Shown here in pieces: positions 8,992 to 59,955 of a DNA stretch of 63,693 bases; the first letter of the stretch is position 1, and each line of letters starts with the position of its first letter. Source of the DNA: Rikenellaceae bacterium (GTDB taxonomy: Bacteria; Bacteroidota; Bacteroidia; Bacteroidales; Rikenellaceae); NCBI GenBank assembly GCA_047173405.1, contig JBCQVD010000001.1, forward strand, positions 1 to 63,693, read 5' to 3'. A model generated the notes under the pieces. It was not told the DNA's origin. It saw only the letters and a list, made by a program, of their open reading frames with translations, and searched no databases. The position numbers and the translations under genes are program-made.

Positions 8992-9111
8992 CGATTTGGT
9001 TTAAGAACTATGTTCTACAATAAAAAGTGTCAGATGATTATCTCAAATAAATTTGGATAACCATCTAACACTTTTCATCTTATAAACACTGAAGTGTTTA
9101 AAACCAAACCG
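8992..9111. repeat. ~120-nt four-way-junction module, copy 1
   Basis: Closing stem tttggttt/aaaccaaa, two short side hairpins, long central stem with apex caaataaatttg. Confidence 0.7.
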
Positions 9112-9123
9112 TAGTAATCGTTC

Positions 9124-9168
9124 AGTGTTTAATGTTAAGCGTTAAATGTTAAGCGTTAAATGTTAAGA
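9124..9168. repeat. Heptamer tandem array (aatgtta/agcgtta type)
   Basis: gtgtttaatgttaagcgttaaatgttaagcgttaaatgttaag. Confidence 0.8.
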
Positions 9169-9182
9169 AGCAAGCGCTACAA

Positions 9183-9285
9183 TAGTAAATGGGAGCTTGC
9201 TCCCCGCCCGTCGGCGTGAGACAGTAAGAGACAATATAAAGAGTAGCTCTGCAGGGAGCACCCTGCCGCTGTCCGCGCAGGACAG
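9183..9285 (+). repeat. Two further REP-like units (variant B then variant A)
   Basis: aaatgggagcttgctccccgcccgtcggcgtgagacag (inverted copy at 38444-38489) and tagctctgcagggagcaccctgccgctgtccgcgcaggacag. Confidence 0.85.
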
Positions 9286-9340
9286 TCCTCTGTAATATAG
9301 ATGCAATATAAACGGAGAGTACTCCGCTAACCGCTAAACA

Positions 9341-9380
9341 CAAAAGATAGCCATCTCTATCTATAAAGGATGGCTATCTA
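9341..9380 (-). terminator. Terminator after DksA-family gene
   Basis: agatagccatc/gatggctatct stem with short T tract on the minus strand. Confidence 0.65.
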
Positions 9381-9401
9381 ATTTTGTATGTATCTACCGA
9401 G

Positions 9402-9785
9402 TTATACGCGACGTTGCTGTTTTGCCTCGATGCACTCTGTTGCATGAGGTACGCGAAGAAGGCGTTGCTTTGGTATTAGTACTCCCGTAGTTTTGCAAAT
9501 GCCGTAAGTCTTATTCTCGATGCGAATAAGAGCAAGTTCCAGGTTACGGATAAACTTAAGTTGGTGAGCAGCGAGTCGTGCGCTCTCCTCCTTTGAGAGG
9601 GTTGTGGCACCCTCCTCTAACACTTTATAGGTGGGTGATGTATCCTCTGTGCCATTATCTGCCGTGTGGGTAATTGTTGCGCGAAGAAGTTCATAGTCAT
9701 CGCGTGCGTTACTTAGCTTTTGGAGAATGAGCTCCTTGAACTCTGCTAAATCAGCATCTCCGTATCTTACAACATCGGTGGACAT
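9402..9785 (-). CDS. TraR/DksA-family regulator
   Basis: RYGDADLAEFKELI N-terminus; ALIRIENKTYGICKTTG...RLLRVPHATECIEAK C-terminus. Confidence 0.88.
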   Translation of the reverse strand: MSTDVVRYGDADLAEFKELILQKLSNARDDYELLRATITHTADNGTEDTSPTYKVLEEGATTLSKEESARLAAHQLKFIRNLELALIRIENKTYGICKTTGVLIPKQRLLRVPHATECIEAKQQRRV

Positions 9786-9880
9786 AAATTTTAGTTTTTT
9801 ATTTTCGTAAAGTTAAGTATAAAAAAGGTCAAATCAAAATGAAAGCACTGTAAATATTACAAATATAATGCAAATAATAC

Positions 9881-9925
9881 AAACGTGAGTTTTGATTAAG
9901 ACACACTCAATCAAAACTCACGTTT
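9881..9925. terminator. Hairpin or terminator after PpiD-like gene
   Basis: 17-bp perfect inverted repeat aaacgtgagttttgatt/aatcaaaactcacgttt. Confidence 0.65.
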
Positions 9926-9946
9926 ATATGTGAAATTAGCTCTATC

Positions 9947-11980
9947 CTAGAAGAAGCGACCTCTTAGATCCTTGATGTTACTAAGTTGCTCAATGGCTGG
10001 GAACACACCCTGCTGAGCGTTACTCTCGGCATTTGCTTGTAGGCGAACCTTAACTTGCTCTTCGGTGACTGGCTCTGCGCTCTCATTGATGCTATCAACA
10101 ACAAAGACAAATAGTCCAGTTACACCCCTTACAGGAGCTGATACTACACCAACCTCGCTAGAGGCAACAGCACCGATAAATGCAGGCTCTACACCCACCT
10201 CACTAACATAGTAAGCATCGTACTTAAGATCTGTGAACTCTGCAATTTTAGAGTTAAGGCTTGCTGCCATATCCTCGAACGACGAACCACTCAACTCACT
10301 CTTGATAGCCTCAAATTTCTTAGTGCGTAGAAGCTCTGATCTGATAGATTTAGTAGCACTCTCGACTGGAGCATACTCGTTATCATCTACTTGTGTTAGC
10401 ATAGCAACAACATATCCATCATCAACCTTGAAGATCTCCGATAGGTCGTTCACCTCGGCTGAGTAGACCCATCTAGCAATCTCTCGAGAGTTTGCGACTC
10501 CCTGGATGTCGCGCTGTCCGCGGCGAAGCATTGATGAACGTACTGTCATCTTAGTTGAGTCGGCGGCTGTTTTGAAGTTCGCCGCAGTGCCCTTAGCATT
10601 TACAGCGAAGAGGCTAGCGTCGTTGTGCGCTTGGCGGATTGTTGCTTGTGACGGCTCGATAGGGTACTCGATAGATGCCACCATATAGTGCTTTGTTGGG
10701 CGACCAACATTGTATGGTTTTACGATCTGAATCATATCGGTGGTCTCAATCTTGATGAGCTTACCCTCTTTGGCTGTTGTTAGCGCGTCGGCGAACTCTC
10801 CCGCGAAAGCAGAGTATGGAGCACGTCCATAGTTACCGCCTACTTGTGCTGCCTGCTCATCTGCGGTGTAGACGCTCGCTGCCTTAGCAAAATCACCTCC
10901 CTTGCTAAGAGCTGTGTATAGGCTGTCGGCAAGTTTAGCTTGATCTATAGGAAGTACAATCATGCTTATACCCACGCTATCAGGAGCCATGCGGCTGCTC
11001 ACCACGCGCGAAGTTCTCCACACGTCGTTGTTTAGCTCGGGTCCATACATTTCATCTTTAGCGAGAGTTTCAACCTCTTTGGCTAGGAGCTGAGACTCGA
11101 TAACATAGTTGTTAGTGATCGAGGCGTTGCGGTTCTCACGAACATACGCTTTAAGATCTGCACTCTTAGCGAACTCACCACCTGCTGCCATCGCCTTTTT
11201 CTCTATCGCTAGCTTGTCGTCGGCAGTAGCTGCAATATTAAATAGCGTGTAGTTAATTGTTCGTGATGGAAGTTGTTTGTAGTTCTGCTTGTGTGCGTTG
11301 TAGTACAATTTAATCTCGCTGTCACTAACGGTAAATAGTGAGTCTGCAAGCTTCGAGTAGCGCTTACCAATCCACTTACCATTGTATGTCTTGTTGTCAT
11401 GAGCTACTGCCTCTTTAACCTCCAAAGCATTAGCGTATGCTCCTTGACGTATTAGTGCCATATACTTTGTAGCCTCACGCTCGGTACGTGCCTGACCATT
11501 GATAAAGTTCCACGCAGCCTCAGCTTGTGGGTTGCCAGCCGATTGTAGTAGGAACTGACCTACAGCCTCAGGGTGGTACTCGCCTGTTGTTCTATCCGCG
11601 AAAGCGGCATAGAAGGCTTGAGTGCGGATATCGCCACTCATTACTGCAAGACGCTCGTTCTCGCCCATGCCGATACCTAGCTCCTCGAAGCCTGGAAGTA
11701 GCACATATTTAGCTAACAAAGATTGTGCTGTTGAGTTAGCGAGCATATCGCTCTGCTCCTGTGTTGATTCGCTCATGCCGCTCTGCTCTCTTATCTCGTT
11801 GTATTCTGATAGATACTCGGTATAGCTTACTGAAGCGTCGTCAATTATTAGAACTTCGGGGTCATTGCCACCAAAGCCCATCTCTGCTTTGAGAGAGAAG
11901 ATAAATGCTAAAAGGGCAAATGCGATAACTGCTGAAAGCACAATGCCAAATTTAGTTCTTAGTGTATTAAGAGTTGCCAT
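9947..11980 (-). CDS. PpiD/SurA N-terminal-domain peptidyl-prolyl isomerase or chaperone
   Basis: MATLNTLR N-terminus with TM anchor, parvulin-like region (GGDFAKAASVYT), C-terminal IKDLRGRFF. Confidence 0.85.
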   Translation of the reverse strand: MATLNTLRTKFGIVLSAVIAFALLAFIFSLKAEMGFGGNDPEVLIIDDASVSYTEYLSEYNEIREQSGMSESTQEQSDMLANSTAQSLLAKYVLLPGFEELGIGMGENERLAVMSGDIRTQAFYAAFADRTTGEYHPEAVGQFLLQSAGNPQAEAAWNFINGQARTEREATKYMALIRQGAYANALEVKEAVAHDNKTYNGKWIGKRYSKLADSLFTVSDSEIKLYYNAHKQNYKQLPSRTINYTLFNIAATADDKLAIEKKAMAAGGEFAKSADLKAYVRENRNASITNNYVIESQLLAKEVETLAKDEMYGPELNNDVWRTSRVVSSRMAPDSVGISMIVLPIDQAKLADSLYTALSKGGDFAKAASVYTADEQAAQVGGNYGRAPYSAFAGEFADALTTAKEGKLIKIETTDMIQIVKPYNVGRPTKHYMVASIEYPIEPSQATIRQAHNDASLFAVNAKGTAANFKTAADSTKMTVRSSMLRRGQRDIQGVANSREIARWVYSAEVNDLSEIFKVDDGYVVAMLTQVDDNEYAPVESATKSIRSELLRTKKFEAIKSELSGSSFEDMAASLNSKIAEFTDLKYDAYYVSEVGVEPAFIGAVASSEVGVVSAPVRGVTGLFVFVVDSINESAEPVTEEQVKVRLQANAESNAQQGVFPAIEQLSNIKDLRGRFF

Positions 11981-12054
11981 ATGATTATGTTTTATTGTTT
12001 ACAATATTTTTAATTGACCCCAAAGATAGTAATTTTTTTGTAAAGGAGCGCTTT

Positions 12055-13323
12055 TTAGTCAATAATTTTTACGTTGAGAAGTTCTAATCGGGATGCTGTT
12101 GTGCGAATAATCTCAATTTCGAGATTTTCGAGCTTTATAGTCTCTCCATTGGATGGGATATCTTGGTGGTTGTAGATGATGTAACCCGCCAGAGTGTCGT
12201 ACTCGTCACTAAGCTCAATGCCTAGCCCGTATTTGTCGTTGAGGTACCTCACCTCTAGGCGTCCCGAGAAGGTGTACTCACTGTCGCTCACGGCACGCTC
12301 GATCATCTCCTGCTCATCGTGTTCATCCTCGATTTCGCCGAAGATCTGCTCTAGGATATCCTCAAGGGAGATAACGCCAGCTGTACCTCCGAACTCATCT
12401 ATAACGACTGCGATATTGCTCTTTTTTGATATAATACTCTGTAACAGAGCGTTTAGCTCCATGGTGTCTGGTACGAAGTTGACGGGTCGAAGTATCTCCT
12501 CTACGCTCTTTGGGTTGTGGAAGAGACTCTTAGAGTTTATATAGCCAATGATGTTGTCAATACTACCACGCCACACGAAGATACGCGAGTACTTGGTCTT
12601 AAAGAATACCTCCGTAAGCTCTTTGATTGAGATATTTTTGATATCTACTGCCACAATATCCACGCGTTGGGTCATGGAGTCACGTACGCGCAGGTCGGCA
12701 AAATCGAGAGCGTTCTGGAATAGCTTGATCTCCTTTTCGGTGTCGCCTTGCACCTCTCCACATCCGTTCGTGGCGTCAATAAGGCTAGCTAAGTCGCTCT
12801 TATTGAATGCCGCAGCGCTCTGCTCGCTATCTATATTGCTGTCTATGAGCTTTAGGAGTAGCTGCGAGAGTACCGTAGTGAACTTCGCAATGGGGTAGAG
12901 TATGATGTAGAACAATCCCATGATGGGGGACAGCATCTTATAGTAGAAGTTGGGGCTACTCTTGAATATTGACTTGGGTAGAAACTCCGCAACAAAGATG
13001 ATTATAAGTGTCGATACCGAGGTCTCGATTATCATTGATAGGTTTGTGGAGATCCAACTCTGCCCTTGCGTGAAGGCACCTATGGTCGATGACATATAGA
13101 GCGAGTAGATAACAAGCGCAATATTGTTACCTACGAGTATTGTCGTGATGTATTGACCAGGATTCTGGGCGAATACTTCGGCAATACGGTCAAACATCCT
13201 GTTTTGTTTGCGGTCAATCTCTAGTTTGAGTCTGTTTTTACTCAAAAAAGCTATCTCCATTCCAGAAAAGAAGGCGGAGAATAGAAGCATCAAGATAATG
13301 ACTATAAGTGCACTTGTTGACAT
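12055..13323 (-). CDS. Hemolysin-family (CNNM/DUF21-CBS-CorC) membrane protein
   Basis: SAFFSGMEIAF, TILVGNNI, AEFLPK, VIDEFGGTAG, YDTLAGYI motifs. Confidence 0.92.
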   Translation of the reverse strand: MSTSALIVIILMLLFSAFFSGMEIAFLSKNRLKLEIDRKQNRMFDRIAEVFAQNPGQYITTILVGNNIALVIYSLYMSSTIGAFTQGQSWISTNLSMIIETSVSTLIIIFVAEFLPKSIFKSSPNFYYKMLSPIMGLFYIILYPIAKFTTVLSQLLLKLIDSNIDSEQSAAAFNKSDLASLIDATNGCGEVQGDTEKEIKLFQNALDFADLRVRDSMTQRVDIVAVDIKNISIKELTEVFFKTKYSRIFVWRGSIDNIIGYINSKSLFHNPKSVEEILRPVNFVPDTMELNALLQSIISKKSNIAVVIDEFGGTAGVISLEDILEQIFGEIEDEHDEQEMIERAVSDSEYTFSGRLEVRYLNDKYGLGIELSDEYDTLAGYIIYNHQDIPSNGETIKLENLEIEIIRTTASRLELLNVKIID

Positions 13324-13330
13324 GTTAACT

Positions 13331-14143
13331 CTACTTTTTCACCGTTTTTCTAGGCGCAGGGGCTTTTTTTGCACTGTTCGAGGTTGTAGTTCCTCTCTTG
13401 GGAGCCTCTTTGGTGGTGTTACTCTTTTTGGTAACACTCTGCGGCGGAGTGCTCTTTTTGGGCGCTGTCTTGGTTGTGCTATCTCTCCTTGCTGCCGTGA
13501 GAGTGTCGCGCACGAGAGAATCCACCGCGAGAGAATCTTGCCTCATGGCGGTCGAGTCCTGCGCCTCTTTAGGCTCAAGGTCCATACCCATAACGCCCTT
13601 CATGCGGCGGAACTTCCAGTCCGACATATCCTCGGTCGATTCGAAACCCTCACCGATATAGCTGTCCCCACTCACCCTGTCGACAATTTTAGTATCTACA
13701 TTCGAGTATATTAGCTGTGTTGAGGCGTTCCAGAATAGCTGTTGCGAGAATAGCTCTTTGCCATCTGCGCGGATGATGGTGACATCACCTTGCGCCTCCC
13801 AGAGCTTACGATTCTCGTAATATATGGCGAAGTTGGCGGTGAGTACAGCGTCAACTTGTGGCGGATCTTCTTTGGTGAATGTCGTAATCTTTATCCCTTG
13901 AGGGAACTCGCGATAGGGGTCTTTAGCTAGGGTGTAGCCCTGTACTACGGGTGCCTTAAAGCGGTATGAGGTGCGTCCATTCTCCGCCATTATCATCTCA
14001 AGACTGTCGCTCGACTCATTCATCATGCGTTCATAATTGACGCTCTTAGACTCCCCGCCTCCACCTCCACACGAAAATAGAGAGATAGCACCCCCCCAGA
14101 AGAGGAGTGCTACCAAAAGTTTTGATATGGTGTTATCACCCAT
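13331..14143 (-). CDS. lptC: LPS export protein LptC with K/T-rich C-terminal tail
   Basis: Lipoprotein-like signal; EFPQGI, LWEAQGDV, SQQLFWN, GEGFES motifs; operon context. Confidence 0.8.
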   Translation of the reverse strand: MGDNTISKLLVALLFWGGAISLFSCGGGGGESKSVNYERMMNESSDSLEMIMAENGRTSYRFKAPVVQGYTLAKDPYREFPQGIKITTFTKEDPPQVDAVLTANFAIYYENRKLWEAQGDVTIIRADGKELFSQQLFWNASTQLIYSNVDTKIVDRVSGDSYIGEGFESTEDMSDWKFRRMKGVMGMDLEPKEAQDSTAMRQDSLAVDSLVRDTLTAARRDSTTKTAPKKSTPPQSVTKKSNTTKEAPKRGTTTSNSAKKAPAPRKTVKK

Positions 14144-14154
14144 TCAGTCTACGA

Positions 14155-15516
14155 CTATTTAGTACCCTTGCGAACGGTAGTCTTAATACCATTGGCAATA
14201 CCACACTTGATAGTGTATGGTGAACCCTCCTTGAGGTCACGCATGAAGTACTCCTCCTCCATTGGGTAGTATTGAGGGTATGTGTTAATAATCCTGCGAG
14301 CAACCTCTTTGTAGTCACTCTCCTCGCTGCTGAAGTTAGCGATAGCCTTAGCCATAGTCTCATACGCTACCCAGTATGTCGCTTGACCCTCGAAGCCCTC
14401 GCAGCGACCTGCTGCATTGGCATAACATTGAGCTATCACGAATAGAGCGATACCGTTGTCTTTGATTGTTCCATCGTCGGTGTTGAGCGATGCGCGAGCC
14501 GAAGCGTAAGCGGCAGACATATCATTTAGTGCAAGAGAAACAACAGCGATACGTGCGTTGAGAGCCTCCTGCTCCTCGATATCCTGCTCTGTTGCTAGAG
14601 CATCCTTAAGATACTTAAGAGCCTTGTCATACTCGCCCTTAGCTTGGAATGTTGCAGCTAGAGCCATTGCAGAGGCTGAGTTTGGCTTAAGTTCGTATAG
14701 GTTTTCAACTACTGTGTAGTAGTATGGAGATTGGCACTTGTTGCGACCCATAATAGCAACAACCTTGCTAAGTAGATCCGCATTTGTTGGATCTGCCTCA
14801 ATTTGTGCTGAGAAGAGTCTCTCAAGATCCTCACATGTTGCAGCACCGCTCTGGATAAATAACGAGTTAAACTGCTCGTTAAACTTAGCATTATCTCCTG
14901 TGAGCTTAGCGAAGTATGGTGCAAGGCGCTCATACTCAGAGAGTACCTCTGAACTCATCACCTCGTCCACACCGTAGTCGTCACAAAGGTTCTGGAAGTA
15001 TGTAGCAACAAGCTGAGCATCCGCCTTATCGCCATTGGCTGCGATCATCGCCTTGAATACCTCACGAAGACCCGCGCGATCCATCTTGTTGTATTTAAAG
15101 AAGTCGCGTGCTTTAGCATCGAGGATATAGGCTGTACCTCTAGTCTCATGGTCGCCATAGTATTTAGCTCGCAGGTCGTAGACAATCATAAGTGAATCCA
15201 CGAACATCTTCTTGTCAGAGAGGCTCTTTGCTAGATCACTCTTCTTGCGATAGATGGCTATACCGCGTGCGAAGATGGCGTCGGTAGCCTCAGGCACTGC
15301 CGTAGCTAGTAGGTTGAAGAGTCTAGCAGCCTCGTTGTAGTCTCCATTTGTAACCGCAGCACGCAAGTACGAGTTGTTGTGCATGTTGGTCTCACGTTCT
15401 TGTGTTGTTGCTCCCCATTTGGCGTAAGCTGGATTTGAGAAGTCCACCTGTTGAGCATTGGTGTTAACGCAGAGAAGCGTCAACGCTGCAACAAAGATTG
15501 ATTTGATATGTTTCAT
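14155..15516 (-). CDS. Secreted TPR-repeat protein
   Basis: Signal peptide; helical repeats (DSLMIVYDLRAKYY, GEYDKALKYLKDA); position upstream of lptC. Confidence 0.7.
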   Translation of the reverse strand: MKHIKSIFVAALTLLCVNTNAQQVDFSNPAYAKWGATTQERETNMHNNSYLRAAVTNGDYNEAARLFNLLATAVPEATDAIFARGIAIYRKKSDLAKSLSDKKMFVDSLMIVYDLRAKYYGDHETRGTAYILDAKARDFFKYNKMDRAGLREVFKAMIAANGDKADAQLVATYFQNLCDDYGVDEVMSSEVLSEYERLAPYFAKLTGDNAKFNEQFNSLFIQSGAATCEDLERLFSAQIEADPTNADLLSKVVAIMGRNKCQSPYYYTVVENLYELKPNSASAMALAATFQAKGEYDKALKYLKDALATEQDIEEQEALNARIAVVSLALNDMSAAYASARASLNTDDGTIKDNGIALFVIAQCYANAAGRCEGFEGQATYWVAYETMAKAIANFSSEESDYKEVARRIINTYPQYYPMEEEYFMRDLKEGSPYTIKCGIANGIKTTVRKGTK

Positions 15517-15547
15517 CTCTTAAGTAGTAATATAGATTAATTATTTA

Positions 15548-16891
15548 TTAGTCGTATTTTGGTCTCTGGAACCAGTAATCATCACCAAACATAGTGATTC
15601 CGATTCCAATCTTAAATTGGTTTTGACGTATTAGCTCGATGCTGTTATCGTTGTATGTAATAGTCTTGTTCTTGCCTAGCGAGTTGTACTCGACACCCAC
15701 GTCGATCTTCGATATTCCGAACATATTGGTTGGGAATCCCACACCCATAGTAATCGCGTATTGTGTTAGATCCTCACCTCCATAATTTTGGTAGTAGCCA
15801 CCATATCTAAGACCTGCGCGGTACGATGCTCTCTTGAGGTAGCTTCGGATGTCACCTCTATTGGGGATATACTCAGCTCCCACATTTATGGTGCTAAAGC
15901 CACTAAACCTAACAGGGATGTCGGTTATCGACATTGTCGCTTCTCCGTCATTTGAGCTACTCCAATCTTGGAACGTATAGTCCGCAAGCAGTGTGAGCTT
16001 AGGGGTTTGGTGCATTACTCCCAGTGAGAATTGAACTGGAAGCACTAGTTTGCTAGAGTATGAAATATCCTGCGCGTAGAAGTCCTGAACCTCGTTGTTA
16101 CCGTAGATTATCTCTGTGATAGTTGGTGATAGGTCACCTCCAGGGTTAAATGTCGCACCGAAAGTTAAGTTCTTCTTGCGCTCGGCAATAGGGCTCCACT
16201 GCACACCGAGTTGCCACTTGATACTCGATACTTGTGTTGTGTTTTTACCAATGGCGTAGGCGTAGTTTCCTCCGCTGGTGATCGAGGTGATCGAGAGACC
16301 ATAAGAGTGGTCGATCTGCCCCCAATAGTATAGAGCCGCAACACCGACCGACAGGTTCTCAACAATCTCCCAGCCCACACCAAACTTAACCTCGGTGATG
16401 TTACCTTCGCCCTCGTAGGCGTAGCTGATGTAGCCGAGTGCTGGGTACGACGCGTAGCTAGTGATTTTGTATCCCGTTTGGCTGTATGGTGTGACACTGA
16501 TGGCAGCACCTACACCCTCGTAGAGAGGGAGCTGAAGGGCTATATCATGGAAGTTAGCTGTCGCGTATTTGCTGTTGCTATCTCCTTGGCTGTTCGAGAA
16601 ACAGCTGACATTCATACCAAAATCAAAGAGTACACTCTTCTGGAGCGTTATACTGTACGACGCTGGGTTGAGTAGGTTTATGCTCGATCCACTACGCAGA
16701 GCAACACCCGCGCCTCCCATGGAGCGTGTGGGTAGAGTACCTTGTGTTTGTAGATCACCCAGACCATACATTGAGTATACCGAGTAGTTGTTAATGGTCA
16801 TTGGTTCAGCCACTACATCACTACAAAAGCAAATAGAGAGTATAAAGGTGAGGAGTGCAACTCCTCTGGAAATTTTATTTTTTATTAGCAT
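15548..16891 (-). CDS. Outer-membrane beta-barrel protein (FadL-like)
   Basis: YSMYGLGDL, RSMGGAG and NPAS motifs; C-terminal WFQRPKYD. Confidence 0.75.
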   Translation of the reverse strand: MLIKNKISRGVALLTFILSICFCSDVVAEPMTINNYSVYSMYGLGDLQTQGTLPTRSMGGAGVALRSGSSINLLNPASYSITLQKSVLFDFGMNVSCFSNSQGDSNSKYATANFHDIALQLPLYEGVGAAISVTPYSQTGYKITSYASYPALGYISYAYEGEGNITEVKFGVGWEIVENLSVGVAALYYWGQIDHSYGLSITSITSGGNYAYAIGKNTTQVSSIKWQLGVQWSPIAERKKNLTFGATFNPGGDLSPTITEIIYGNNEVQDFYAQDISYSSKLVLPVQFSLGVMHQTPKLTLLADYTFQDWSSSNDGEATMSITDIPVRFSGFSTINVGAEYIPNRGDIRSYLKRASYRAGLRYGGYYQNYGGEDLTQYAITMGVGFPTNMFGISKIDVGVEYNSLGKNKTITYNDNSIELIRQNQFKIGIGITMFGDDYWFQRPKYD

Positions 16892-17612
16892 TATATTCCA
16901 AAATTTTGTTCAAGCCCTTAAATAGCAGCTCTTGCTCTGCAAATATCGTATTTTTAATTCTTTTATCAAAGTATTTTGCGTCTCCACCTACAAAAATAAC
17001 CAACAATTTTTCAAACTTTGATCTAAAGTGTGAAATATATCCCTCCATTTCGTAGCAAATTCCATTCATTACGCCCTTTTTTATTGCGCTTTGAGTTGTT
17101 TGCGCAATATCAAAATCCTCCTCTTGAGCTTGACATAGAGGCAGCGAGGCGGTAAACTCGTGTAGCGCCTTGAACCGCATATTAACTCCTGGCGATATAA
17201 CGCCCCCCTCAAAGGCTCCCTCCGCGCTCACGAAGTCTATTGTTATGGCTGTGCCGCAGTCAATGAGTAGAATATCTCTGTTTTTATATGTGTCGTGTGC
17301 ACCAATAGCAAGAGCCAACCTATCCCGCCCAAGGGTCTCGGGTGTTGAGTAGTTGCACTCTATTGGTAGCTCAAGTGTTGTGTCAAAAAGTAGTGCGTCT
17401 TTAACGATCTCCTTTAGCTCCGCGATTATAGCCGTTGCGTCACCTCGCGTAGAGCAGACAATGGCGCCCGATATATCGTAGCGTCGAGCGAAGTCTCTCA
17501 CCCGCTCTTGCGAGAAGTTATCCTCTGAGAGCATCTCCATGATGGATCCATCACCCTCCATAACGGCATATTTAACGCGGCTATTGCCTATGTCAATAAG
17601 AATATTTACCAT
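16875..17612 (-). CDS. coaX: Type III pantothenate kinase
   Basis: IDIGNSRVK, TPETLGRDR, IDCGTAITID, GGVISPG, GGDA motifs. Confidence 0.95.
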   Translation of the reverse strand: MVNILIDIGNSRVKYAVMEGDGSIMEMLSEDNFSQERVRDFARRYDISGAIVCSTRGDATAIIAELKEIVKDALLFDTTLELPIECNYSTPETLGRDRLALAIGAHDTYKNRDILLIDCGTAITIDFVSAEGAFEGGVISPGVNMRFKALHEFTASLPLCQAQEEDFDIAQTTQSAIKKGVMNGICYEMEGYISHFRSKFEKLLVIFVGGDAKYFDKRIKNTIFAEQELLFKGLNKILEYNANKK

Positions 17613-17686
17613 TTTAAACAGTTTCTTAATGATTTTGAATGTTAGTAAATTATAAATAGATTAGATACGGAGGGTTTATTTTTATT

Positions 17687-17854
17687 CGTATTGTGTTTAA
17701 ATGCTTTGGGCATTTATAAATTTTGAGATTTAAGTTGTTACGTAAATTTATTTGCGATAATAACTTAAAACTCAAAATATTAGAGAGAAGTCTCTAATCA
17801 CAATACGCAAAAAATCCTTAGCTCCGCGGGGAGCACCCCGCTCGCCGAAGGCAG
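17687..17854 (+). repeat. Four-way-junction module (17687-17807) plus REP-like unit (17819-17854)
   Basis: Close homolog of 46075-46243 with compensatory substitutions. Confidence 0.85.
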
Positions 17855-17889
17855 TCCTCAGATTTAATCAGGTAATTTCAACATAAAAC

Positions 17890-21207: not shown

Positions 21208-21245
21208 CTAGCTTAAATTTTTATGGATAGCTCTCTCGAACACCC

Positions 21246-22793: not shown

Positions 22794-22814
22794 AAAACGC
22801 TTTGCTATTTAACG

Positions 22815-22851
22815 TATTAAAGCTAAGGATATTGTCTCCTTAGCTTTAATA
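22815..22851. terminator. Hairpin between bS22 and rng
   Basis: 15-bp inverted repeat tattaaagctaagga/tccttagctttaata. Confidence 0.55.
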
Positions 22852-22879
22852 TTTAGGCGACATATAAGATGTCGGCTAC

Positions 22880-22972
22880 CTACTTTTTCTTCTTGTGACG
22901 ATTCTTGCGTAGACGTTTTTTACGCTTGTGGGTAGCCATCTTATGCCTTTTTCTTTTCTTTCCGCTTGGCAT
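22880..22972 (-). CDS. 30S ribosomal protein bS22 (AURKAIP1/COX24-like), 30 aa; absent from ORF track
   Basis: Manual translation MPSGKKRKRHKMATHKRKKRLRKNRHKKKK*; lies between HU and rng. Confidence 0.88.
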   Translation of the reverse strand: MPSGKKRKRHKMATHKRKKRLRKNRHKKKK

Positions 22973-23005
22973 AGCTGTAATTTTTTGATTTATACTCGTG
23001 TTAAC

Positions 23006-25328: not shown

Positions 25329-25329
25329 G

Positions 25330-26737: not shown

Positions 26738-26946
26738 TTAGTGTTAAGTGTTTAATGTTAAGTGTTTAATTGTTTAATGTTTATTGACTAATTTCTTAAC
26801 GTTTAACACTAAACATTAAACGGTTTTTCGGTTCAAACACAAGAGTGTATGATAAATTTCAGAGGGATAGTTGGTTACTCAAATTTATTTGAAATAACTA
26901 ACTATCCCTTTGAAATATTATAGCTTTAGGTATAATCCGAAAACCG
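26738..26946. repeat. Inverted heptamer array (26738-26821) plus four-way-junction module copy 2 (26821-26946)
   Basis: agtgtta/aatgttt repeats then their complement; closing stem cggtttttcgg/ccgaaaaccg; apex caaatttatttg. Confidence 0.75.
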
Positions 26947-26960
26947 TAAAACATAAAGTT

Positions 26961-27176
26961 TAGCTCTGCGGGGAGCACCCCGCCGCTGTCCGCGCAGGAC
27001 AGTAAGAAGCAATACAAAAGATTTTGGTTCTTACGAACCAACGCCCTCTGAGCGATTTTCCCGCGAGCGCAAAAATCGCTTTTTAGGAGGGAGGGCGATA
27101 GAGTTTCTGTGATAGAGTTTCTGCGATCCGAGGACTGCCCTACGCGGGCGGCGGCGGGGTGCTCCCCGCGGAGCTA
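26961..27176. repeat. REPIN/MITE-like element, inverted relative to 8771-8980
   Basis: TAGCTC...GAGCTA termini with ~40-bp imperfect inverted units; shared spacer ttggttc..gaaccaacgccctctgagcgatttt. Confidence 0.9.
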
Positions 27177-38443: not shown

Positions 38444-38583
38444 TCTTACTGTCTCACGCCGACGGGCGGGGAGCAAGCTCCCATTTACTTTTTGCTGCGC
38501 TTGTTGGAAAATCAATTCTTGATTTATTGCGGTTATATAAAATAGGGGATTCAAGCAAGCTTGATCCCTCTATTTCAGAGCCG
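38444..38583 (-). repeat. REP-like variant B (38444-38489) plus partial four-way-junction module
   Basis: Reverse complement of 9183-9229; followed by gcgcttgt..aaatcaattcttgattt..aaatagg, also seen at 59684. Confidence 0.75.
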
Positions 38584-44987: not shown

Positions 44988-44994
44988 AGGATTA

Positions 44995-46074: not shown

Positions 46075-46243
46075 CGTATTGGGTTTAAATACTTTTGGTA
46101 TTTAATAAATTTTGAGATTCAAGTTGTTATGTAAATTTATTTACAATAATTACTTGAAAATCAAAATATTAGAGCGAAGTCTCTAATCCCAATGCGCTAC
46201 AATGTATTAGCTCTGCGGGGAGCACCCCGCTCGCCGAAGGCAG
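46075..46243 (+). repeat. Four-way-junction module (46075-46196) plus REP-like unit (46208-46243)
   Basis: Homolog of 17687-17854. Confidence 0.85.
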
Positions 46244-46276
46244 TTGTCGGATTTAATCGGGTAACGCTATTTTATT

Positions 46277-50032: not shown

Positions 50033-51187
50033 ATGACAAAAATTTTAGTTATTGAACAATCAAAAAGTGTGCGAAACAATCTTCACGAGCGACTTCTTTT
50101 TGAGGGTTACAAGGTTGATGCTGTTGAGGATATTAATCAAGCCGCAGGTGTTGGGCTTTACGATGTAGTGTTGGTGGACGATGCTAATTTTCGCACTCCA
50201 CACCTACTCTCGTCGAGCCTTTTTATTGTGATGTCGAACGAGTCGACAATAGAGGCAGCGGTGGCAGCAGTACACGCTGGAGCCTACGAGTTTCTAACCA
50301 AGCCGCTCGATATGAATCGACTCCTCGCCTCGGTTAGGCGTCTGGAACACGAGCGTGAGGTGAGCGTTGAGGAGTCTCATGCAGCGCCCGTAAAACGCAC
50401 CGTGAGACGCTCTAGCTCTATTGAGGTGGAGGAGATGATCGGCTGCTCTATACCGATGGTTAAACTGCGCAATATAATGGATAAGGTGGCACCATCGGAC
50501 GCGCGAGTGATGATCCTCGGTGAGAACGGCACAGGCAAGGAGATGGTTGCGCGGTGGATACACCATAAGAGTCAGCGTGCGAGCCGCCCCTTTGTCGAGA
50601 TCAACTGCGCCGCAATCCCCTCGGAACTTATCGAGAGCGAACTCTTCGGGCACGAGAAGGGAGCCTTCACCTCGGCAATAAAGATGAGACGAGGTAAATT
50701 CGAGCAGGCGCACGGCGGAACTCTCTTTATGGACGAGATTGGAGATATGTCGCTCTCGGCGCAGGCGAAGGTTCTGCGTGCACTTCAGGAGCGCAAGATT
50801 TGTCGTGTGGGTAGCGACAAGGATATAGATGTCGACGTGAGGGTGCTGGCGGCGACAAATAAAGATATTAGAGCCGAGATCGAGAGGGGTAACTTTCGCG
50901 AAGATCTATACCATCGCATAGGTGTTATAGAGATGGTTGTAGCCCCTCTGCGTCAACGTAGCGAGGATATACCTCTTCTGATAGATGCCTTCTTGAACCG
51001 TATATGCGCAGATTATAATATCTCGCCCGTGAAGAGCGTAAGCCCCGAGGCGATGAGCCGTCTCAAGACCATGAGGTGGAGCGGCAATATACGTCAACTA
51101 CGTAATATTGTTGAACGGTTGGTTATCTTATCCTCCGACTCTACGATCTCTCTGCAAGATGTAGAGGCTCATTGCGAGATATGCTAA
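50033..51187 (+). CDS. NtrX-like sigma-54-family response regulator (receiver + AAA+)
   Basis: GAYEFLTKP, GENGTGKE, ELFGHEKGAFTSA, FMDEIGDMS, WSGNIRQLRN; no C-terminal HTH. Confidence 0.88.
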   Translation: MTKILVIEQSKSVRNNLHERLLFEGYKVDAVEDINQAAGVGLYDVVLVDDANFRTPHLLSSSLFIVMSNESTIEAAVAAVHAGAYEFLTKPLDMNRLLASVRRLEHEREVSVEESHAAPVKRTVRRSSSIEVEEMIGCSIPMVKLRNIMDKVAPSDARVMILGENGTGKEMVARWIHHKSQRASRPFVEINCAAIPSELIESELFGHEKGAFTSAIKMRRGKFEQAHGGTLFMDEIGDMSLSAQAKVLRALQERKICRVGSDKDIDVDVRVLAATNKDIRAEIERGNFREDLYHRIGVIEMVVAPLRQRSEDIPLLIDAFLNRICADYNISPVKSVSPEAMSRLKTMRWSGNIRQLRNIVERLVILSSDSTISLQDVEAHCEIC

Positions 51188-51303
51188 TTAGTGTTTAATG
51201 TTAGGAGTTAAGAGTTAAGGTATTTAATCTAATCACTAATCACTTAACTCTTAACATTAATCGCTTAACATTAAACGCTTAACACTTAACGTTAAACACT
51301 AAA
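51188..51303. repeat. Inverted heptamer array filling a convergent intergenic gap
   Basis: agtgtttaatgttaggagttaagagtta followed by about ten taacact/taacatt-like units. Confidence 0.85.
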
Positions 51304-51462
51304 CTACTCCTCAACAAAGACATCCTTACCCAAGCCACAAACTGGGCATACCCAATCTTCGGGTAGTTCGTCGAAAGGAGTCATAGGTTCAATACTATTC
51401 TCTGTGTCGCCCATCTCTGGGTCATATTCATAGCCACAAGGCTCGCAAATGTACTTTTTCAT
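51304..51462 (-). CDS. Rubredoxin, 52 aa; absent from ORF track
   Basis: Manual translation [19 protein letters not shown]...[24 protein letters not shown]. Confidence 0.95.
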
Positions 51463-52656: not shown

Positions 52657-52678
52657 ATATTTTTGTGTTTTTATTTTA

Positions 52679-52838
52679 GAAACTGTTTAAATTCTGTATC
52701 GAAGCTATTTTAAGGCTATTTTGTATTAGTTTTTATGCCTCAAATGAGGCGAATAGTGGTTCTATTTAACGATTTTGAGGTGCGAAAGATGATGCAAAAG
52801 AGCCTAAAAGAACGAAAATATAAAACTTAAACAGTTTC
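52679..52838. mobile_element. MITE (~160 bp), inverted copy of 41712-41872
   Basis: tta|gaaactgtttaaattctgtat ... atataaaacttaaacagtttc|tta. Confidence 0.88.
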
Positions 52839-53813
52839 TTATTGTACCGAACCGAAGTGGCGAAGAAATTGACTTCTTACGAGAACCTCTGCTTCGCTTT
52901 TACCTGCCGCAGAGAGGTTTGCTCGGTACTCGTCGATACTCTCGTAGCCATGGTTTTGTTGCCACTCTTTAACCTCCTCGGTTGCCTCTGCGACCCATTT
53001 ATTGCCTTTGGTATATAGCACGCTGCACACCTCTACTGCCGAGGCACCCGCTAAAATAGCCTTTACAACATCTGCGCCACTCTTAACGCCACCCGATAGT
53101 GCGACGTCGATATTTCGAACCTTTGCGGAGGTTATACCAACCCATCTAAGAGGGATGGCTAGATCCTGCGGTGTACTGAATGGACTACCTGCGACATACT
53201 CCATACTCTCGATGTCGATATCCGAGGAGTACATGCGGTTAAAGAGCACCACCGCCGCTGCGCCACAAGCTTTGAGTCGACTGATAAGTGCTACGGGGTT
53301 GGTTACGAGCGAACCGAGTTTTACTATGATAGGGATGTTGATTTGTGCCTTGATGCTGCGCACGATATCCTCGTGTGCCCTCTCCACGCGACCATCCTCG
53401 TAGTCGATACCACACTCTATACCCATAATATTAAGCTCTAGGGCGTCGGCTCCAGCCTCCTCGATGAGTCTTGCGAACTCCTCCCACTCACCATGTGTTA
53501 TGGCGCAGATGCTTGCGATGATAGGCACGGAGCACTCTTGCTTGCAGCGCTTGATAAGTTCGATATACTCGCTTAGTTCGTGTGATCGTAGGTAGCCGTG
53601 CAGGTAATCTGCACCCTCGCTGTGGTGAGTCTCTTGCGACAAGACCTCACTTTGAGAGATTATATTCTCCTCGAAGAGTGATTTAAGGACGATAGCACCA
53701 ACACCCGCCTCACAGAGGGCTATGTTGTGGGCTATGTTAGCCGTACGGCTACTGCTCGCAGCTATAATTGGGCTGCAAAGCTCTAAGCCTGCAAATGTGG
53801 TTTTTATATTCAT
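52839..53813 (-). CDS. Dihydroorotate dehydrogenase-like flavoprotein
   Basis: GAIVLKSLFEE, PIIASI, ADALELNI, PIIVKL, VLFNR, SGGV, AGASAVEVCS. Confidence 0.85.
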   Translation of the reverse strand: MNIKTTFAGLELCSPIIAASSSRTANIAHNIALCEAGVGAIVLKSLFEENIISQSEVLSQETHHSEGADYLHGYLRSHELSEYIELIKRCKQECSVPIIASICAITHGEWEEFARLIEEAGADALELNIMGIECGIDYEDGRVERAHEDIVRSIKAQINIPIIVKLGSLVTNPVALISRLKACGAAAVVLFNRMYSSDIDIESMEYVAGSPFSTPQDLAIPLRWVGITSAKVRNIDVALSGGVKSGADVVKAILAGASAVEVCSVLYTKGNKWVAEATEEVKEWQQNHGYESIDEYRANLSAAGKSEAEVLVRSQFLRHFGSVQ

Positions 53814-56023: not shown

Positions 56024-56044
56024 TTTTTGTTGAAGTTGATTTTT

Positions 56045-58186
56045 ATGCAGCGAAAAAGATATTTTAAAACTCTATCGACCATCGTCATACTACTAGTCGT
56101 AGTATTGATGCTTCTGCCTCAAGGTGCTAGTTATGCACAGAGTGCGAAGGATTTTCAAGAGGCGATGCAAAATGGAGAGGAGCTAACGTATGGTAATAAT
56201 CCCTTTGAGAGTGAAGAGGAGGGGGGGCAACAGCGTCCTGATACTGCAAAAAAGGAGGCTGTGTTGCGTAAACCGCTGGAGTCCTATTTCTTTAGCGATT
56301 CGCTCCGCGCTCAAGGTACGCTTAAGTGGACTATCAAGAGAGATCTCAACGAGGTAGAGTTCCAGAAACTAGATACAACCCTTACGGATTGGCGAATTGA
56401 TTACGCAATTCAAAAAGAGGGAGTTGGTGATATGTACTTGGGTGGTTTGGGTCAAGCCTCACAGCCAATAGACTATTTAGAGCGACCTCGGTATTTCAAC
56501 TTCTCGTTCGCGCAGAGCTATGACTCCTACATCTACGATATGGAGAGTACTCCGTTTTATAATGTTAAGCAACCTTTTACGCAGCTTAATTATATCGAGA
56601 GTGGTTCTAAGACATATCGAGAGGCTAACTTCTCGATTACTCACGCTCAAAATATCACGCCATCAACAGGTTTCAGCTTGAGCTACAAGTCACCTGGAAC
56701 CAAAGGTCTTTATCAGCGTCAAGATACTAAGAACCATAACTTAGCTCTCACATTCTCGCATACGGGAAAGCGTTACTCTGTGCACGCAGCCTATGTAAAT
56801 AACAACATAGAAGTTGAGGAGAGCGGAGGTGTTGTTGCCGATTGGATGATTCGAGATACGGTCTTTGATCTCTCTATTGGTATCCCTACGAAGTTAGGCG
56901 ACGCAGAGGCGACAAATCAGTACCGTAACAACTCCTTTTTTGTGGTTCAGTCGTACGGTATCCCGTTGGTTCCGATGAGCGATTATGACTTCTCGATGGA
57001 GCAGCTACCGTCGGTATATTTTGGGCACTCATTTGAGTACAATTCATGGAGCAAGAGCTACTCAGATGTTCGTGCTACATACGAAGATGAGCGAGGTTCG
57101 GTTGATGCGAATGGAGATTTTGTTACTGTCGAGGGTGAGTACTACGATAATTGGTATATAAACGGATATATGTCTCGTGATTCACTCTACGAGCAGGTTA
57201 TCTCCAATAGACTCTTTGTTCAAGCACAACCCTGGGACCGCAATGGTACGGTGGGTACATTGAGCGCTGGTCTGGGTATTGATATTCACACCTACTCTCA
57301 GTTTGTGTTGGACGATTATCTCTCGGGGGGCATGCAGGTTGACCGTGAGACAAGCTGGTACCTCTACGGCGATGTGAAGGGTATGATCCGTCGCGCGGTT
57401 GACTGGGGCGGTCACTTCAAGGTATACCCTTCGGGCTATCGAGGTGGAGATACAAGCCTCGGTGGAGACATCTCCTTTCACTCGAATATTGGCAAGCACC
57501 CTGTAAGGCTTTCGGGTAGCCTAGATATGGATATCCAGTCACCGTCGTATTGGCATAATAAGCTCTTTTCGAACCACTACGTGTGGGAGAATGACTTTAA
57601 TGCCGAGACTCAGACGAGCCTTAAGGCGAAGCTGGAGATGCCAAGTATTGGTGTGGAGCTGAGTTTCTCGCAGAGCATGGTGAGCGACAAGATATATTAT
57701 GACGCTAATGCCAATGTGGCACAATCATCTAGCTCGGTGAGCATTACGGCGCTCTATGCGCGCAAAGATTTCAAGGTCGGAGGTTTTAACTTCGGTCATA
57801 GGCTTCTCTTCCAGAGTTCGTCGGATGAGAGTGTTGTCGCAGTCCCCGACCTAAGTGCCTTTTTGTCGTATTACTACCAATTTTGGGTAGTGCCCAAGGT
57901 GTTGGAGTTGCAGATCGGTTTTGATGGTCGCTACACCACGGAGTATTATATGCCTGGTTACAACCCAGCGCTAGGTGTATTCTATAATCAGCGTGAGGTG
58001 GTTGTAGGTACAGACCCTTACGTCGACGTGTTTGTGGCGGGTAAGTGGAAAAGAATGAGAATAATTCTGAAATATCAACATATCAACGATGGATTAGTAG
58101 GCAGTGGAAACGATTTCTCTGTTGCCCATTATGCGCTAAATCCTGGTATGTTCAAATTCGGTATTTCGTGGGGATTCTATGACTAG
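56045..58186 (+). CDS. Putative outer-membrane porin (Bacteroidota type)
   Basis: Signal peptide, PFYNVKQPFT, beta-rich body, C-terminal FGISWGFYD. Confidence 0.8.
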   Translation: MQRKRYFKTLSTIVILLVVVLMLLPQGASYAQSAKDFQEAMQNGEELTYGNNPFESEEEGGQQRPDTAKKEAVLRKPLESYFFSDSLRAQGTLKWTIKRDLNEVEFQKLDTTLTDWRIDYAIQKEGVGDMYLGGLGQASQPIDYLERPRYFNFSFAQSYDSYIYDMESTPFYNVKQPFTQLNYIESGSKTYREANFSITHAQNITPSTGFSLSYKSPGTKGLYQRQDTKNHNLALTFSHTGKRYSVHAAYVNNNIEVEESGGVVADWMIRDTVFDLSIGIPTKLGDAEATNQYRNNSFFVVQSYGIPLVPMSDYDFSMEQLPSVYFGHSFEYNSWSKSYSDVRATYEDERGSVDANGDFVTVEGEYYDNWYINGYMSRDSLYEQVISNRLFVQAQPWDRNGTVGTLSAGLGIDIHTYSQFVLDDYLSGGMQVDRETSWYLYGDVKGMIRRAVDWGGHFKVYPSGYRGGDTSLGGDISFHSNIGKHPVRLSGSLDMDIQSPSYWHNKLFSNHYVWENDFNAETQTSLKAKLEMPSIGVELSFSQSMVSDKIYYDANANVAQSSSSVSITALYARKDFKVGGFNFGHRLLFQSSSDESVVAVPDLSAFLSYYYQFWVVPKVLELQIGFDGRYTTEYYMPGYNPALGVFYNQREVVVGTDPYVDVFVAGKWKRMRIILKYQHINDGLVGSGNDFSVAHYALNPGMFKFGISWGFYD

Positions 58187-58264
58187 AGACTGTAAGAGTC
58201 TAAAAACTAGTTGTATAGTTCGCGGAATTAATGTTGTCGGGTGTCGAATTTGCCCCTAAAATAG

Positions 58265-58963
58265 ATGTTTATGATAAAAAAATCAGCAATTTTATTAGTT
58301 GTTGTTGCTATGAGCGAGTTGTTGCTCACCGTCGAGACTACTATGTGTCGACCACAACTAATTATCCCATCTGTTCTACCCGCCGCGATGGTTAAGGAGC
58401 AGAGCTTCAAGGAGGCTGAGGTCATCTCTCCTTATGACCCAATTTTTAAGGAGGTGTGCATGATGCATGGTAATGACTGGAGATTGATGAGTGCTATGGC
58501 ATACCACGAATCGCGTTTTAAAGCCAACGCAACCTCTCCAGCAGGAGCGCAAGGGATGATGCAAATCATGCCCAATGTAGCTAAGTTCTTTGATGTTAGC
58601 GAACAAGATCTAAGTGATGTTTGGACAAATATCACAGTCGCTAACCTACTGGTTAACCGAATCGACAAGATGCTTAGTCTCCCCGCACGCGTGAGTGACG
58701 AGGATCGTATGTCGTTGATTCTGGCGAGCTATAATGGCGGTATTGGACGCGTCTTCGATGCGCAGCGCCTAGCTCGATTTTATGGTGAAGATCCCTACGA
58801 TTGGGATGTTGTCGCCAAGTACCTATGTCTCATAGCTCAACCCGAGTACTACAACCATGAGGTTGTTCGTAACGGACGTTTTGCAGGTAGCGGTGAGACT
58901 CTAGCCTATGTCGGCAAAGTTATCGGACAGTACGGTAACTACTGCCAAATAGCAGCTCTTTAG
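58265..58963 (+). CDS. Lytic transglycosylase (SLT domain, MltF-like)
   Basis: ISPYD, DWRL..AYHESRF, GAQGMMQIMP, LASYNGG, ETLAYV. Confidence 0.9.
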   Translation: MFMIKKSAILLVVVAMSELLLTVETTMCRPQLIIPSVLPAAMVKEQSFKEAEVISPYDPIFKEVCMMHGNDWRLMSAMAYHESRFKANATSPAGAQGMMQIMPNVAKFFDVSEQDLSDVWTNITVANLLVNRIDKMLSLPARVSDEDRMSLILASYNGGIGRVFDAQRLARFYGEDPYDWDVVAKYLCLIAQPEYYNHEVVRNGRFAGSGETLAYVGKVIGQYGNYCQIAAL

Positions 58964-59553
58964 AGCATTAACAGTGCGCGTAGTTCAGCGCAACTTTTAG
59001 CTGGGTTTGTGGCATCAAAGAGCGATGCGGCAAGCCCAGCATTTTTTGCCCCCTCTACATTTTGCTCCCTATCATCAATAAAGAGTGACTCCTCGGCTTT
59101 GAGGTCGAAACGCTCAAGCAGGGTGTTGTATATCTCAACCTCGGGCTTGATAAATCCCACCTCGCTCGATATCACATCGCCATCGAAGTAGTCGTATATG
59201 TCGAGCGAACGGATTTGACATATATACTCGTGGGGCATATTCGAGAGCACGTATAACCTATACTCCGCAGCCTTAAGATCTTGAAGAAGAGCGGTTGTCA
59301 CAGGTATAGGGATGTGCATCGTTATCGACTCCTCGATATATTTGTCGCACTCCTCGAGGGTTATTCCGTTGTGTGCCGCCAGCGCGTCTTTCATATCCTT
59401 GAAAGAGATTGTTCCACGATCGTAATCCTTCCAAAACTGAGGCATCGGGTCGCGTAGGTATACAAAGAACTCCACTAACTCCTTGGTGTACTTGCTGGTG
59501 TCGTGCTTTACAACAACACCGCCTAGGTCGAAGATTATATTCTTAATAGCCAT
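58960..59553 (-). CDS. HAD-family phosphatase
   Basis: IFDLGGV, LSN, KPEVEIY, FIDD motifs. Confidence 0.9.
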   Translation of the reverse strand: MAIKNIIFDLGGVVVKHDTSKYTKELVEFFVYLRDPMPQFWKDYDRGTISFKDMKDALAAHNGITLEECDKYIEESITMHIPIPVTTALLQDLKAAEYRLYVLSNMPHEYICQIRSLDIYDYFDGDVISSEVGFIKPEVEIYNTLLERFDLKAEESLFIDDREQNVEGAKNAGLAASLFDATNPAKSCAELRALLML

Positions 59554-59573
59554 TTTTTTCTGTTGTTTTATTT

Positions 59574-59955
59574 TAGCTCCGCGGGGAGCACCCCGCCGCC
59601 GCCCGCGCAGGGCAGTTGTATATATATTTCTGAGGACTGTCTCCGACGGGCGGGGTGCTCCCTGCGGAGCCTTTATTTTGTAGCGCTTGTCGGTAAATCA
59701 ATTCTTGATTTGTTGTGATTATATGAAATAGGAATCTAAAGAGAGCTTTATCCCTATTTCAGATAACCACTTCAATGCAAACATTCGTTTGCTATAACAA
59801 GCGTATATTAATGTTTAGCGTTAAGCGTTTAATGTTAAGAAACTAACCACTATGCGCTAAACACTTAACATTAAACGCTAAACACTGCTATTAACAGATG
59901 CAATACAAAAAATAGCTCTGCGGGGAGCACCCCGCCCGTCGGAGGCAGTCCTCGG
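59574..59955. repeat. Composite repeat: inverted REP pair (59574-59671), four-way-junction module (59684-59803), inverted heptamers (59808-59886), REP unit (59913-59950)
   Basis: Same modules and same order as at 8771-9285. Confidence 0.85.

Follow-up and report, generated by a model that had tools for sequence, protein, structure and literature searches.

A four-way-junction repeat joined to REP-like units in a Rikenellaceae genome: a likely gene-less mobile element read as folded single-stranded DNA

Copies of the element in the window

The window is a 63,693-nucleotide stretch of DNA from a Rikenellaceae bacterium (GenBank assembly GCA_047173405.1, contig JBCQVD010000001.1, positions 1 to 63,693). 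It contains five full copies and one truncated copy of a repeat of about 120 nt that folds as a four-way junction, each next to a repetitive extragenic palindromic (REP)-like unit. An earlier note, made from the letters alone, had listed the five full copies. All are present, and under DNA parameters each folds as a junction on one strand or both. The architecture is a closing stem, a side hairpin, a long central stem, and a second side hairpin, and it is found in all copies, as the note had described. The assembly is a 2.07 Mb metagenome-assembled genome (MAG) that is 94% complete, and the sequencing runs that contain the stretch are recorded mostly as fish gut or gut metagenomes. The copies have housekeeping genes on either side, and the genes bracketed by elements are housekeeping-like by their N-termini or Pfam matches.

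Two copies of subfamily C lie in gene junctions on the plus strand. The first (17687..17807) is in the mfd-coaX junction and is followed by a REP-like unit of the main type, R, with a C-GAA-G loop (17819..17857, plus). The second (46075..46196) is in the thyA-folA junction and is followed by an R unit with the same loop (46208..46244, plus). The three paired substitutions said to separate these two modules are present in the sequence.

The subfamily A module (26821..26946, plus) is preceded by an inverted heptamer repeat spacer, termed t (26741..26820, no strand). It is followed by a group at 26961..27176 (plus) made up of an R unit, a second kind of branched module, G (27021-27098), and a facing R unit on the minus strand (27126-27176). 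The subfamily B module (8992..9111, minus) belongs to class 1 and has an AAA-TTTA-TTT apex. Its R unit (8938..8980, minus) is the 3' part of the element and consists of hairpin 1 and hairpin 2, the latter with C-GCA-G. A facing R unit (8771..8815, plus) and a G module at ~8837-8913 complete an R-G-R group. On the other side lie a tandem heptamer repeat (t spacer; 9124..9167, no strand) and then an r2 unit followed by an R unit (9186..9290, plus), the right end of a composite locus whose second module is missing.

Subfamily D of class 2 has one full module in the window (59684..59803, minus), beside two facing R units at 59574..59672 (59574-59616 plus, 59634-59672 minus). An inverted heptamer spacer, what is left of an F-type closing arm, and one R unit follow at 59810..59950 (plus). 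This segment is the right arm of a doublet with its second module deleted. The truncated copy (38498..38576, minus) is also of subfamily D and has lost its 5' part at the stop codon of a neighboring gene (38570-40357). The partial copy previously placed at ~38498-38583 therefore exists, with its end near 38576. Its neighbor (38448..38487, minus) is a REP-like unit of the different type r2, so the TAGCTC-type neighbor claimed for every copy does not extend to this one. The orientation of module to REP-like unit is fixed, as proposed, and the gap between closing stem and core is 13-16 nt rather than 9-15. The apex common to four copies is confirmed in the sequence. The better-folding strand of the copies at 8992, 59684, and 38498 is the minus strand, and in all six copies the strand that reads module and then REP-like unit folds better under RNA parameters.

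Copy number, subfamilies, and fold

The genome of 2.07 Mb contains 261 R cores. DNA upstream of these cores was clustered into six groups, and profiles from the groups were used to search the genome for modules. This search returned 204 modules, which fall into 6-7 subfamilies by sequence. The 177 modules of at least 100 nt divide into subfamilies A (33), B (34), C (35), D (35), E (15), and F (25). Copies are 87-94% identical to their own subfamily consensus. Class 1 is composed of A, B, and C, which are 62-70% alike and have the apex in common. Class 2 is composed of D, E, and F and is mostly unalignable with class 1; identities between the classes come from mostly collapsed alignments and show only that the two cannot be aligned. 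The family had been described as conserved in shape and not in sequence. This is right for the middle of the long stem, which varies freely, and wrong for the subfamilies and class 1 at the identities just given and for the junction and apex, which are conserved across species.

Folding separates the modules from shuffled controls, giving far more junctions than dinucleotide shuffles do. With DNA parameters, 158 of the 177 near-full-length copies fold as the junction, compared with 3 of 885 shuffles; with RNA parameters the figures are 118/177 and 9/885. Median arm lengths are 10, 7, 26, and 7 bp in this genome and 9, 7, 28, and 8 bp in other species.

The most fitting reading joins module and REP-like unit in a single element of about 200 nt, with an A-rich linker after the module. 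The earlier view of a fold-conserved element that spreads together with REP-like units is supported, with the change that the two are suggested to be parts of one element and not passenger and carrier. Chimeric, deleted, and tandem copies occur among the elements, which have ragged outer ends and show tandem growth.

Modules lie 5' of R or r2 units, and many are paired as inverted doublets with a heptamer-repeat spacer in the middle. Divergent pairs join class 1 to class 2 in 35 of 37 cases and join like subfamilies in none; the doublets are related by descent, so these are not 37 independent events. Like-type pairs are present in another species, where they stand farther apart and have different long stems. 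Unlike partners may be kept since like ones would make long perfect palindromes, or the left and right ends may differ. A four-helix-bundle gene at another place in the genome is flanked by the repeat type of 9124..9167 as well, and other species carry other repeats in the doublet middle; several repeat families are thus nested at the element loci.

Insertion at sites empty in relatives

None of 27 relatives has the element in the mfd-coaX junction, and none of 26 has it in the thyA-folA junction. In most relatives the spacers at these junctions measure -7 to +35 nt, compared with ~280-300 nt here. Since the sites are empty in relatives, the copies at 17687 and 46075 are, on this comparison of sequences, insertions and not conserved regulators of these genes. 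Element positions are not conserved between species.

Of 376 genomes of the genus, 32 have the R pattern, about 22 of them with at least three matches, and in loci from other species a junction lies upstream of 81 of 122 distinct R cores. A covariance model, the approach the earlier note had recommended, matched 25 of 150 genus genomes, with many strong copies in six and one to four weak copies in 19. In another 150 genomes from the order it matched none of the candidates, of which only 23 were scored for each genome.

Metagenome scans with each of two patterns gave 0 matches, a viral scan gave 2 GC-rich matches that are unrelated, and no clean empty allele appeared in sequencing-run contigs covering two stretches. 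The variable part of the long stem was considered as a local guide and rejected, as it matches no local DNA except neighboring copies.

Covariation of the stems

Covariation was measured in 25 class-1 modules from ~14 genomes, hand-picked among those that fold as junctions. Two-sided changes occur at 41 of 46 pairs, a level reached by 0 of 500 shuffles, and slid controls collapse. Cells with two-sided changes number 260, compared with ~17 one-sided. Conservation in this alignment is at the junction and apex, and the middle of the long stem varies freely. A further alignment (A3) is too poorly aligned to give a consensus closing stem. Within the genome, the distinct stem-pair changes lead to 59 other Watson-Crick pairs, 94 G-T pairs, 46 A-C pairs, and 117 other mismatches, and inverted apexes and swapped side arms occur among the copies.

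Covariation alone is no proof of selection, because template switching, which is reportedly found at imperfect inverted repeats, also re-matches arms. The direct jumps between pairs fit arm-to-arm copying by this route, and some of the covariation may have a mutational origin. The fixed arm lengths, a one-strand G-T bias, and the loop types speak for selection on the fold as well. The proposal that the element is selected for its fold is therefore not fully shown by the 260:17 ratio, and it keeps some support from these other features.

Template switching could also preserve the fold of repeats that have no dedicated enzyme and spread by recombination and replication slippage among palindromes. 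Such passive spread would account for the excess of two-sided changes, the inverted apexes and swapped side arms, the chimeric, deleted, and tandem copies, and the fact that no enzyme turned up. It leaves unexplained the insertion into tightly coupled operon junctions without a prior repeat, the fixed arm lengths across unrelated sequences, the one-strand G-T and GNA bias, and the host-matched tRNA-end copies described below. We consider it unlikely.

Loop types and strand

The loops of the element are of a DNA type. Of the 261 R units, 241 have a C-GNA-G loop, and all four bases occur at N. GNA words in module hairpins number 73, compared with 6 for the reverse complement, on a genome background of 2437 and 2482. 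The 474 module loops include 81 GNA loops, 207 pyrimidine-pyrimidine-N-purine tetraloops, no GNRA, and one UUCG. In other species GNA is found in 73 of 162 side loops and GNRA in 3 of 243 loops. According to excerpts of PMC13037366, GNA alone of the 64 triloops forms a very stable DNA mini-hairpin, its RNA counterpart is far weaker, and such mini-hairpins are located at single-stranded DNA (ssDNA) priming sites.

Orientation to transcription is even. Among the 177 modules, 85 have convergent neighbor genes and 4 have divergent ones. Where the neighbors are co-oriented, the folding strand is the sense strand for 32 modules and the antisense strand for 37. The DNA-type loops and this even orientation favor ssDNA over RNA. 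The choice between structured RNA and ssDNA that the earlier note had left is narrowed toward ssDNA by the loop types, the orientation, and the lineage-specific insertion.

A structured RNA, at first a tRNA trailer, would either be reverse-transcribed back in trans in the manner of a short interspersed nuclear element (SINE) or serve as a transcript terminator or stabilizer. The long stem has 256 G-T and 10 A-C pairs on the oriented strand, a bias that fits RNA, and an RNA would also fit the A-rich linker, the enrichment between convergent genes, and the sense copies that directly adjoin tRNA genes with a duplicated tRNA end. The loops are GNA triloops and not GNRA or UUCG, the junction is the best fold in more copies with DNA than with RNA parameters, sense and antisense are even, and a reverse transcriptase is found in 1 of 4 distinct genomes, which is not the window genome. 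Rfam gives no match to the element either. At gathering score it finds only tRNAs in the window, and in 8600-27400 there is nothing at E<=1. Four loci gave only sub-threshold eukaryotic hairpin models, and eight loci gave only tRNA, RNase P, and two sub-threshold models lying on tRNAs. The RNA reading is rather unlikely. A promoter was also considered: on the opposite strand, the apex resembles the consensus of the Bacteroidetes -7-type element, but subfamily C often alters the apex.

Replication gives a weak strand bias. On contigs that could be called, the folding strand is leading-strand sequence in 65 copies and lagging-strand sequence in 89, and subfamily B alone reaches p=0.016 (uncorrected). 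The units might be kept as host signals for single-strand priming or fork restart, like the ssi sites of phages and plasmids. The slight lagging-strand excess agrees with this, as do the mini-hairpins at phage and plasmid priming sites, which excerpts of PMC13037366 describe as resistant to single-stranded DNA-binding protein (SSB), and the GCGTTA-type loop named there, which occurs in R variants of the relatives. With so small a bias, positions that are not conserved between species, and an R pattern missing from most members of the genus, this explanation is highly improbable.

Relatives at tRNA genes

Low-copy members of the genus carry related junctions next to tRNA genes. In 12 regions from nine such genomes outside the clade there are 16 junctions; the apex is the same in nearly all of them, and a full tRNA gene adjoins 10 of the 16. 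The first layout begins with the tRNA end and continues through the junction and R-like hairpins to a direct repeat of the final 17-18 nt of the tRNA, a stretch that begins in the T-loop. The repeat is an exact 17 nt at two loci (L296 and L280), an ~18-nt tRNA-like end at L300, and decayed at L283, L286, and L302. The tail of L283 matches R at 19 of 24 positions.

The second layout has the element antisense behind the terminator. Its start is a host-matched reverse complement of the T-arm, and its final part copies the tRNA end. Antisense element ends score a mean of 10.0 against their own tRNA end and 4.5 against others at 8 sites, which include two weak ones and two from paralogous Leu genes. 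Among 401 family genomes, an exact pattern for this type matches 5, each of them a member of the genus. A related junction element also lies just upstream of the RNase P RNA gene in genome G026 (L282), and its ends carry a short repeat of promoter-side sequence.

Proposed mobility and the enzyme

The element is likely a non-autonomous, gene-less unit of ~200 nt that moves as folded ssDNA, is recognized by its shape, and is served by an enzyme acting in trans. The copy number, the fold, the covariation, and the insertion at sites empty in relatives point to this, together with the DNA-type loops, the one-strand G-T bias, the inverted doublets of unlike classes, and the tRNA-end copies beside the relatives. 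The low-copy form linked to tRNA genes would be ancestral. The form of the fish-gut clade would then have ceased to target tRNA genes and multiplied near gene ends, among other palindromic repeats. The junction and the apex, ~26 bp apart, may be the points of protein contact, and the stem between them would be a ruler that is free in sequence and whose arms are re-matched by template switching.

The enzyme would most likely be a structure-reading tyrosine recombinase, either host Xer-like or the integrase of an island. It is proposed because the direct repeats of the relatives start in the tRNA T-loop, and it is a tentative guess. An HUH enzyme too divergent for Pfam is a slimmer possibility, and a small nuclease such as GIY-YIG is slimmer still. 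A bolder version is doubtful: a protein-less mobile DNA read purely as branched ssDNA, with a Holliday-junction mimic and a ruler arm, and inserted by an enzyme new to transposition. Its tRNA-end mini-elements and REP-like bursts would be two life stages, and the mirror copy of the target would be a DNA guide.

Several results weigh against the ssDNA element. No mobilizing gene was identified by the searches made. Y1 HUH transposases, including the REP-associated tyrosine transposases (RAYTs; PF01797), are found in 0 of 47 genomes, which are incomplete MAG-type assemblies or of uncertain type, and in 6 of 14 controls. IS110 fragments or genes are patchy (PF02371 in 2 of 4 distinct genomes, PF01548 in 1 of 5) and missing from the window genome, as is the reverse transcriptase. 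Tyrosine recombinases are found in 5 of 5 genomes, and nothing ties them to the element. No flanking direct repeats exceed control at 37 single copies of the window genome, in a test that is blind to 5-bp repeats and meets ragged outer ends. Gene-end duplication at window-genome copies is at control level only, none of the 35 tRNA genes of this genome has a tRNA-end copy, and no excised, circular, or strain-polymorphic form was seen. The recombinase step is consequently argued from the relatives only. These score just 40-54 bits on a roughly calibrated model, and their homology to R is short. The G-T bias fits RNA equally and could be caused by strand-biased deamination, enrichment between convergent genes is expected of RNA-level effects too, and CTTG and CTCG apex loops are also stable in RNA.

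Other enzyme families gave no candidate. Y1 was found in 0 of 5 genomes of a further set that overlaps the 47 at least partly, PDDEXK_3 and PDDEXK_2 in 0 of 5 each, and Y2 transposase in 0 of 5, where no control matched either and the result carries no information. DUF559 occurs in 1 of 26 genomes; neither it nor the IS110, reverse transcriptase, and PD-(D/E)XK families track the element. There is no gene, and hence no tyrosine integrase of their own, within the elements, and no recognizable transposase was seen by eye among 147 basic open reading frames (ORFs). The window genome has no GIY-YIG match, not even the UvrC-type match seen in nearly all of 25 relatives. The assembly thus misses genes, and the absence of an enzyme here is weak evidence. 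The absence of Y1 across the 47 genomes is stronger than absences in the window genome alone.

Small GIY-YIG and four-helix-bundle genes were considered as drivers and rejected, as they are flanked by other repeat types. Stand-alone GIY-YIG ORFs of ~90 aa are flanked by CGTC-type palindromic repeats at 11 loci in 9 of 26 genomes (L091, L093, L094, L095, L096, and others). Excerpts of PMC3733652 describe CGTC repeats as lacking a dedicated transposase. The stand-alone GIY-YIG is, from this association in sequence, a candidate driver for the CGTC repeat family.

The elements could also be ordinary REPINs (paired REP sequences) or bacterial interspersed mosaic elements (BIMEs) whose RAYT was lost or missed in the assembly, with the junction as an elaborated spacer. 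The inverted doublets, ragged ends, tandem growth, and convergent-gene bias are those of REPINs, the assembly does miss genes, and excerpts of PMC6006769 give Bacteroidetes RAYTs of subclass 2.6 atypical feet such as GCTC/GCTA. This explanation is very unlikely, given the Y1 result and its controls. Among the matches listed, R cores are by eye preceded by varied A/T-rich ends (TTA, ATA, AAA, GTA) with no consistent GTAG foot, and the excerpted REP papers do not describe tRNA-end duplications as a REP feature.

Comparison with known systems

Two kinds of recombinase substrate resemble the proposed ssDNA element. Integron attC sites and other folded-ssDNA substrates of tyrosine recombinases keep their shape while the sequence varies, fold better on one strand, and have fixed spacing. 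The element shares all of these, with fixed spacing of its conserved points. It differs in being branched and not a single hairpin, in forming no gene-cassette arrays, and in that no integron integrase was identified; by eye, its consensus sequences contain no attC core motifs. Elements that integrate into tRNA genes cross over in the T-loop. In the relatives, likewise, the final 17-18 nt of the tRNA are repeated directly, or a mirror copy matched to the host is present, but there is no integrase gene inside, and the window copies have no tRNA link.

REPINs and BIMEs with RAYT (TnpA-REP) are similar in occurring as hundreds of intergenic palindromic copies, in forming inverted doublets that prefer unlike partners with a bias to convergent genes, and in lacking target duplication and expanding in lineage-specific bursts (excerpts of PMC6006769 and PMC3733652). 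Their unit is described there as a 20-40-nt hairpin, whereas the unit here is ~200 nt with a four-way junction, no Y1 is found in the 47 genomes, and the relatives lie at tRNA ends.

The bcr1 repeat of the Bacillus cereus group is a chromosomal repeat of ~155 bp with a cruciform-like fold, two side stem-loops, compensatory changes, non-conserved positions, and no known enzyme (excerpts of PMC3184786). The element shares this kind of fold, the compensatory changes, and the variable positions. It is reported there to have 5-bp direct repeats and to be transcribed, whereas the window genome has no direct repeats above control, 5-bp ones being undetectable. The element also forms doublets, carries a REP-like tail, and falls into several subfamilies of unrelated sequence; bcr1 was compared by description and Rfam only. 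Miniature inverted-repeat transposable elements (MITEs) such as ERIC, Correia, and RUP share the size, the non-autonomy, and the terminal pairing, as described in the same excerpts. The element differs from them in showing no target duplication and in having ragged outer ends and a branched fold conserved across unrelated sequences. The sharp terminal inverted repeats and target duplication of a DDE-mobilized MITE were not found; DDE families were not searched one by one.

The element works like REPINs and looks like bcr1. It is filed under neither, since no RAYT was found and no target duplication is shown. No described family was recognized in the earlier note, and none was found in Rfam or in the literature searched, most subscription papers being outside its scope. 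PMC11748540 contains none of the words repeat, transposase, and palindrome.

The spread of small palindromic repeats without a RAYT or a matching insertion sequence is an open question, judging from excerpts on CGTC repeats (PMC3733652) and bcr1 (PMC3184786). The genus offers a natural series from one to four tRNA-linked copies to ~200 free copies, with empty and filled sites. The sharp fold and strong covariation make the enzyme huntable by gene profiling and by pull-down on defined ssDNA. They are also a caution for RNA-motif searches, as textbook covariation here likely reports DNA structure.

Other repeats and neighboring genes

G modules lie between facing R units at 27021-27098, 8837-8913, 44648-44720, and 44850-44922 of the window. 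The latter two are held in a 202-nt tandem duplication (44620-44988). A module related to G forms part of longer arms in another genome (G017). In the same genome, two inverted arms bracket an rfbC-like gene (PF00908) in a possible composite element (L071, G017:C9). At a further locus (L081, G226:C23), tandem R-G units each follow a copy of the last ~60 nt of the upstream gene, and the second is decayed.

Heptamer repeats have associations of their own. Four-helix-bundle genes (PF05635) are flanked by inverted tandem heptamer repeats (L123-L133, with L128 at G000:C68:676-927 in the window genome, G000), and the gene of this genome has an internal TGA. The repeat pair without a gene is common in the genome and is seen in the window at 35828-35900, 43720-43810, and 51183-51304. 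Between repeat clusters, 44156-44575 contains a 139-aa ORF with no Pfam match.

Two MITE-like elements are also present. Element H has sharp terminal inverted repeats and measures 40-165 nt; it lies at 43818-43860 and at ~17 other loci, and it is sometimes inserted within modules, apparently at TA. The other is ~165 nt long with terminal inverted repeats, lies at 41709-41874 and 52677-52842, and has left fragments at 17609-17622 and 36710.

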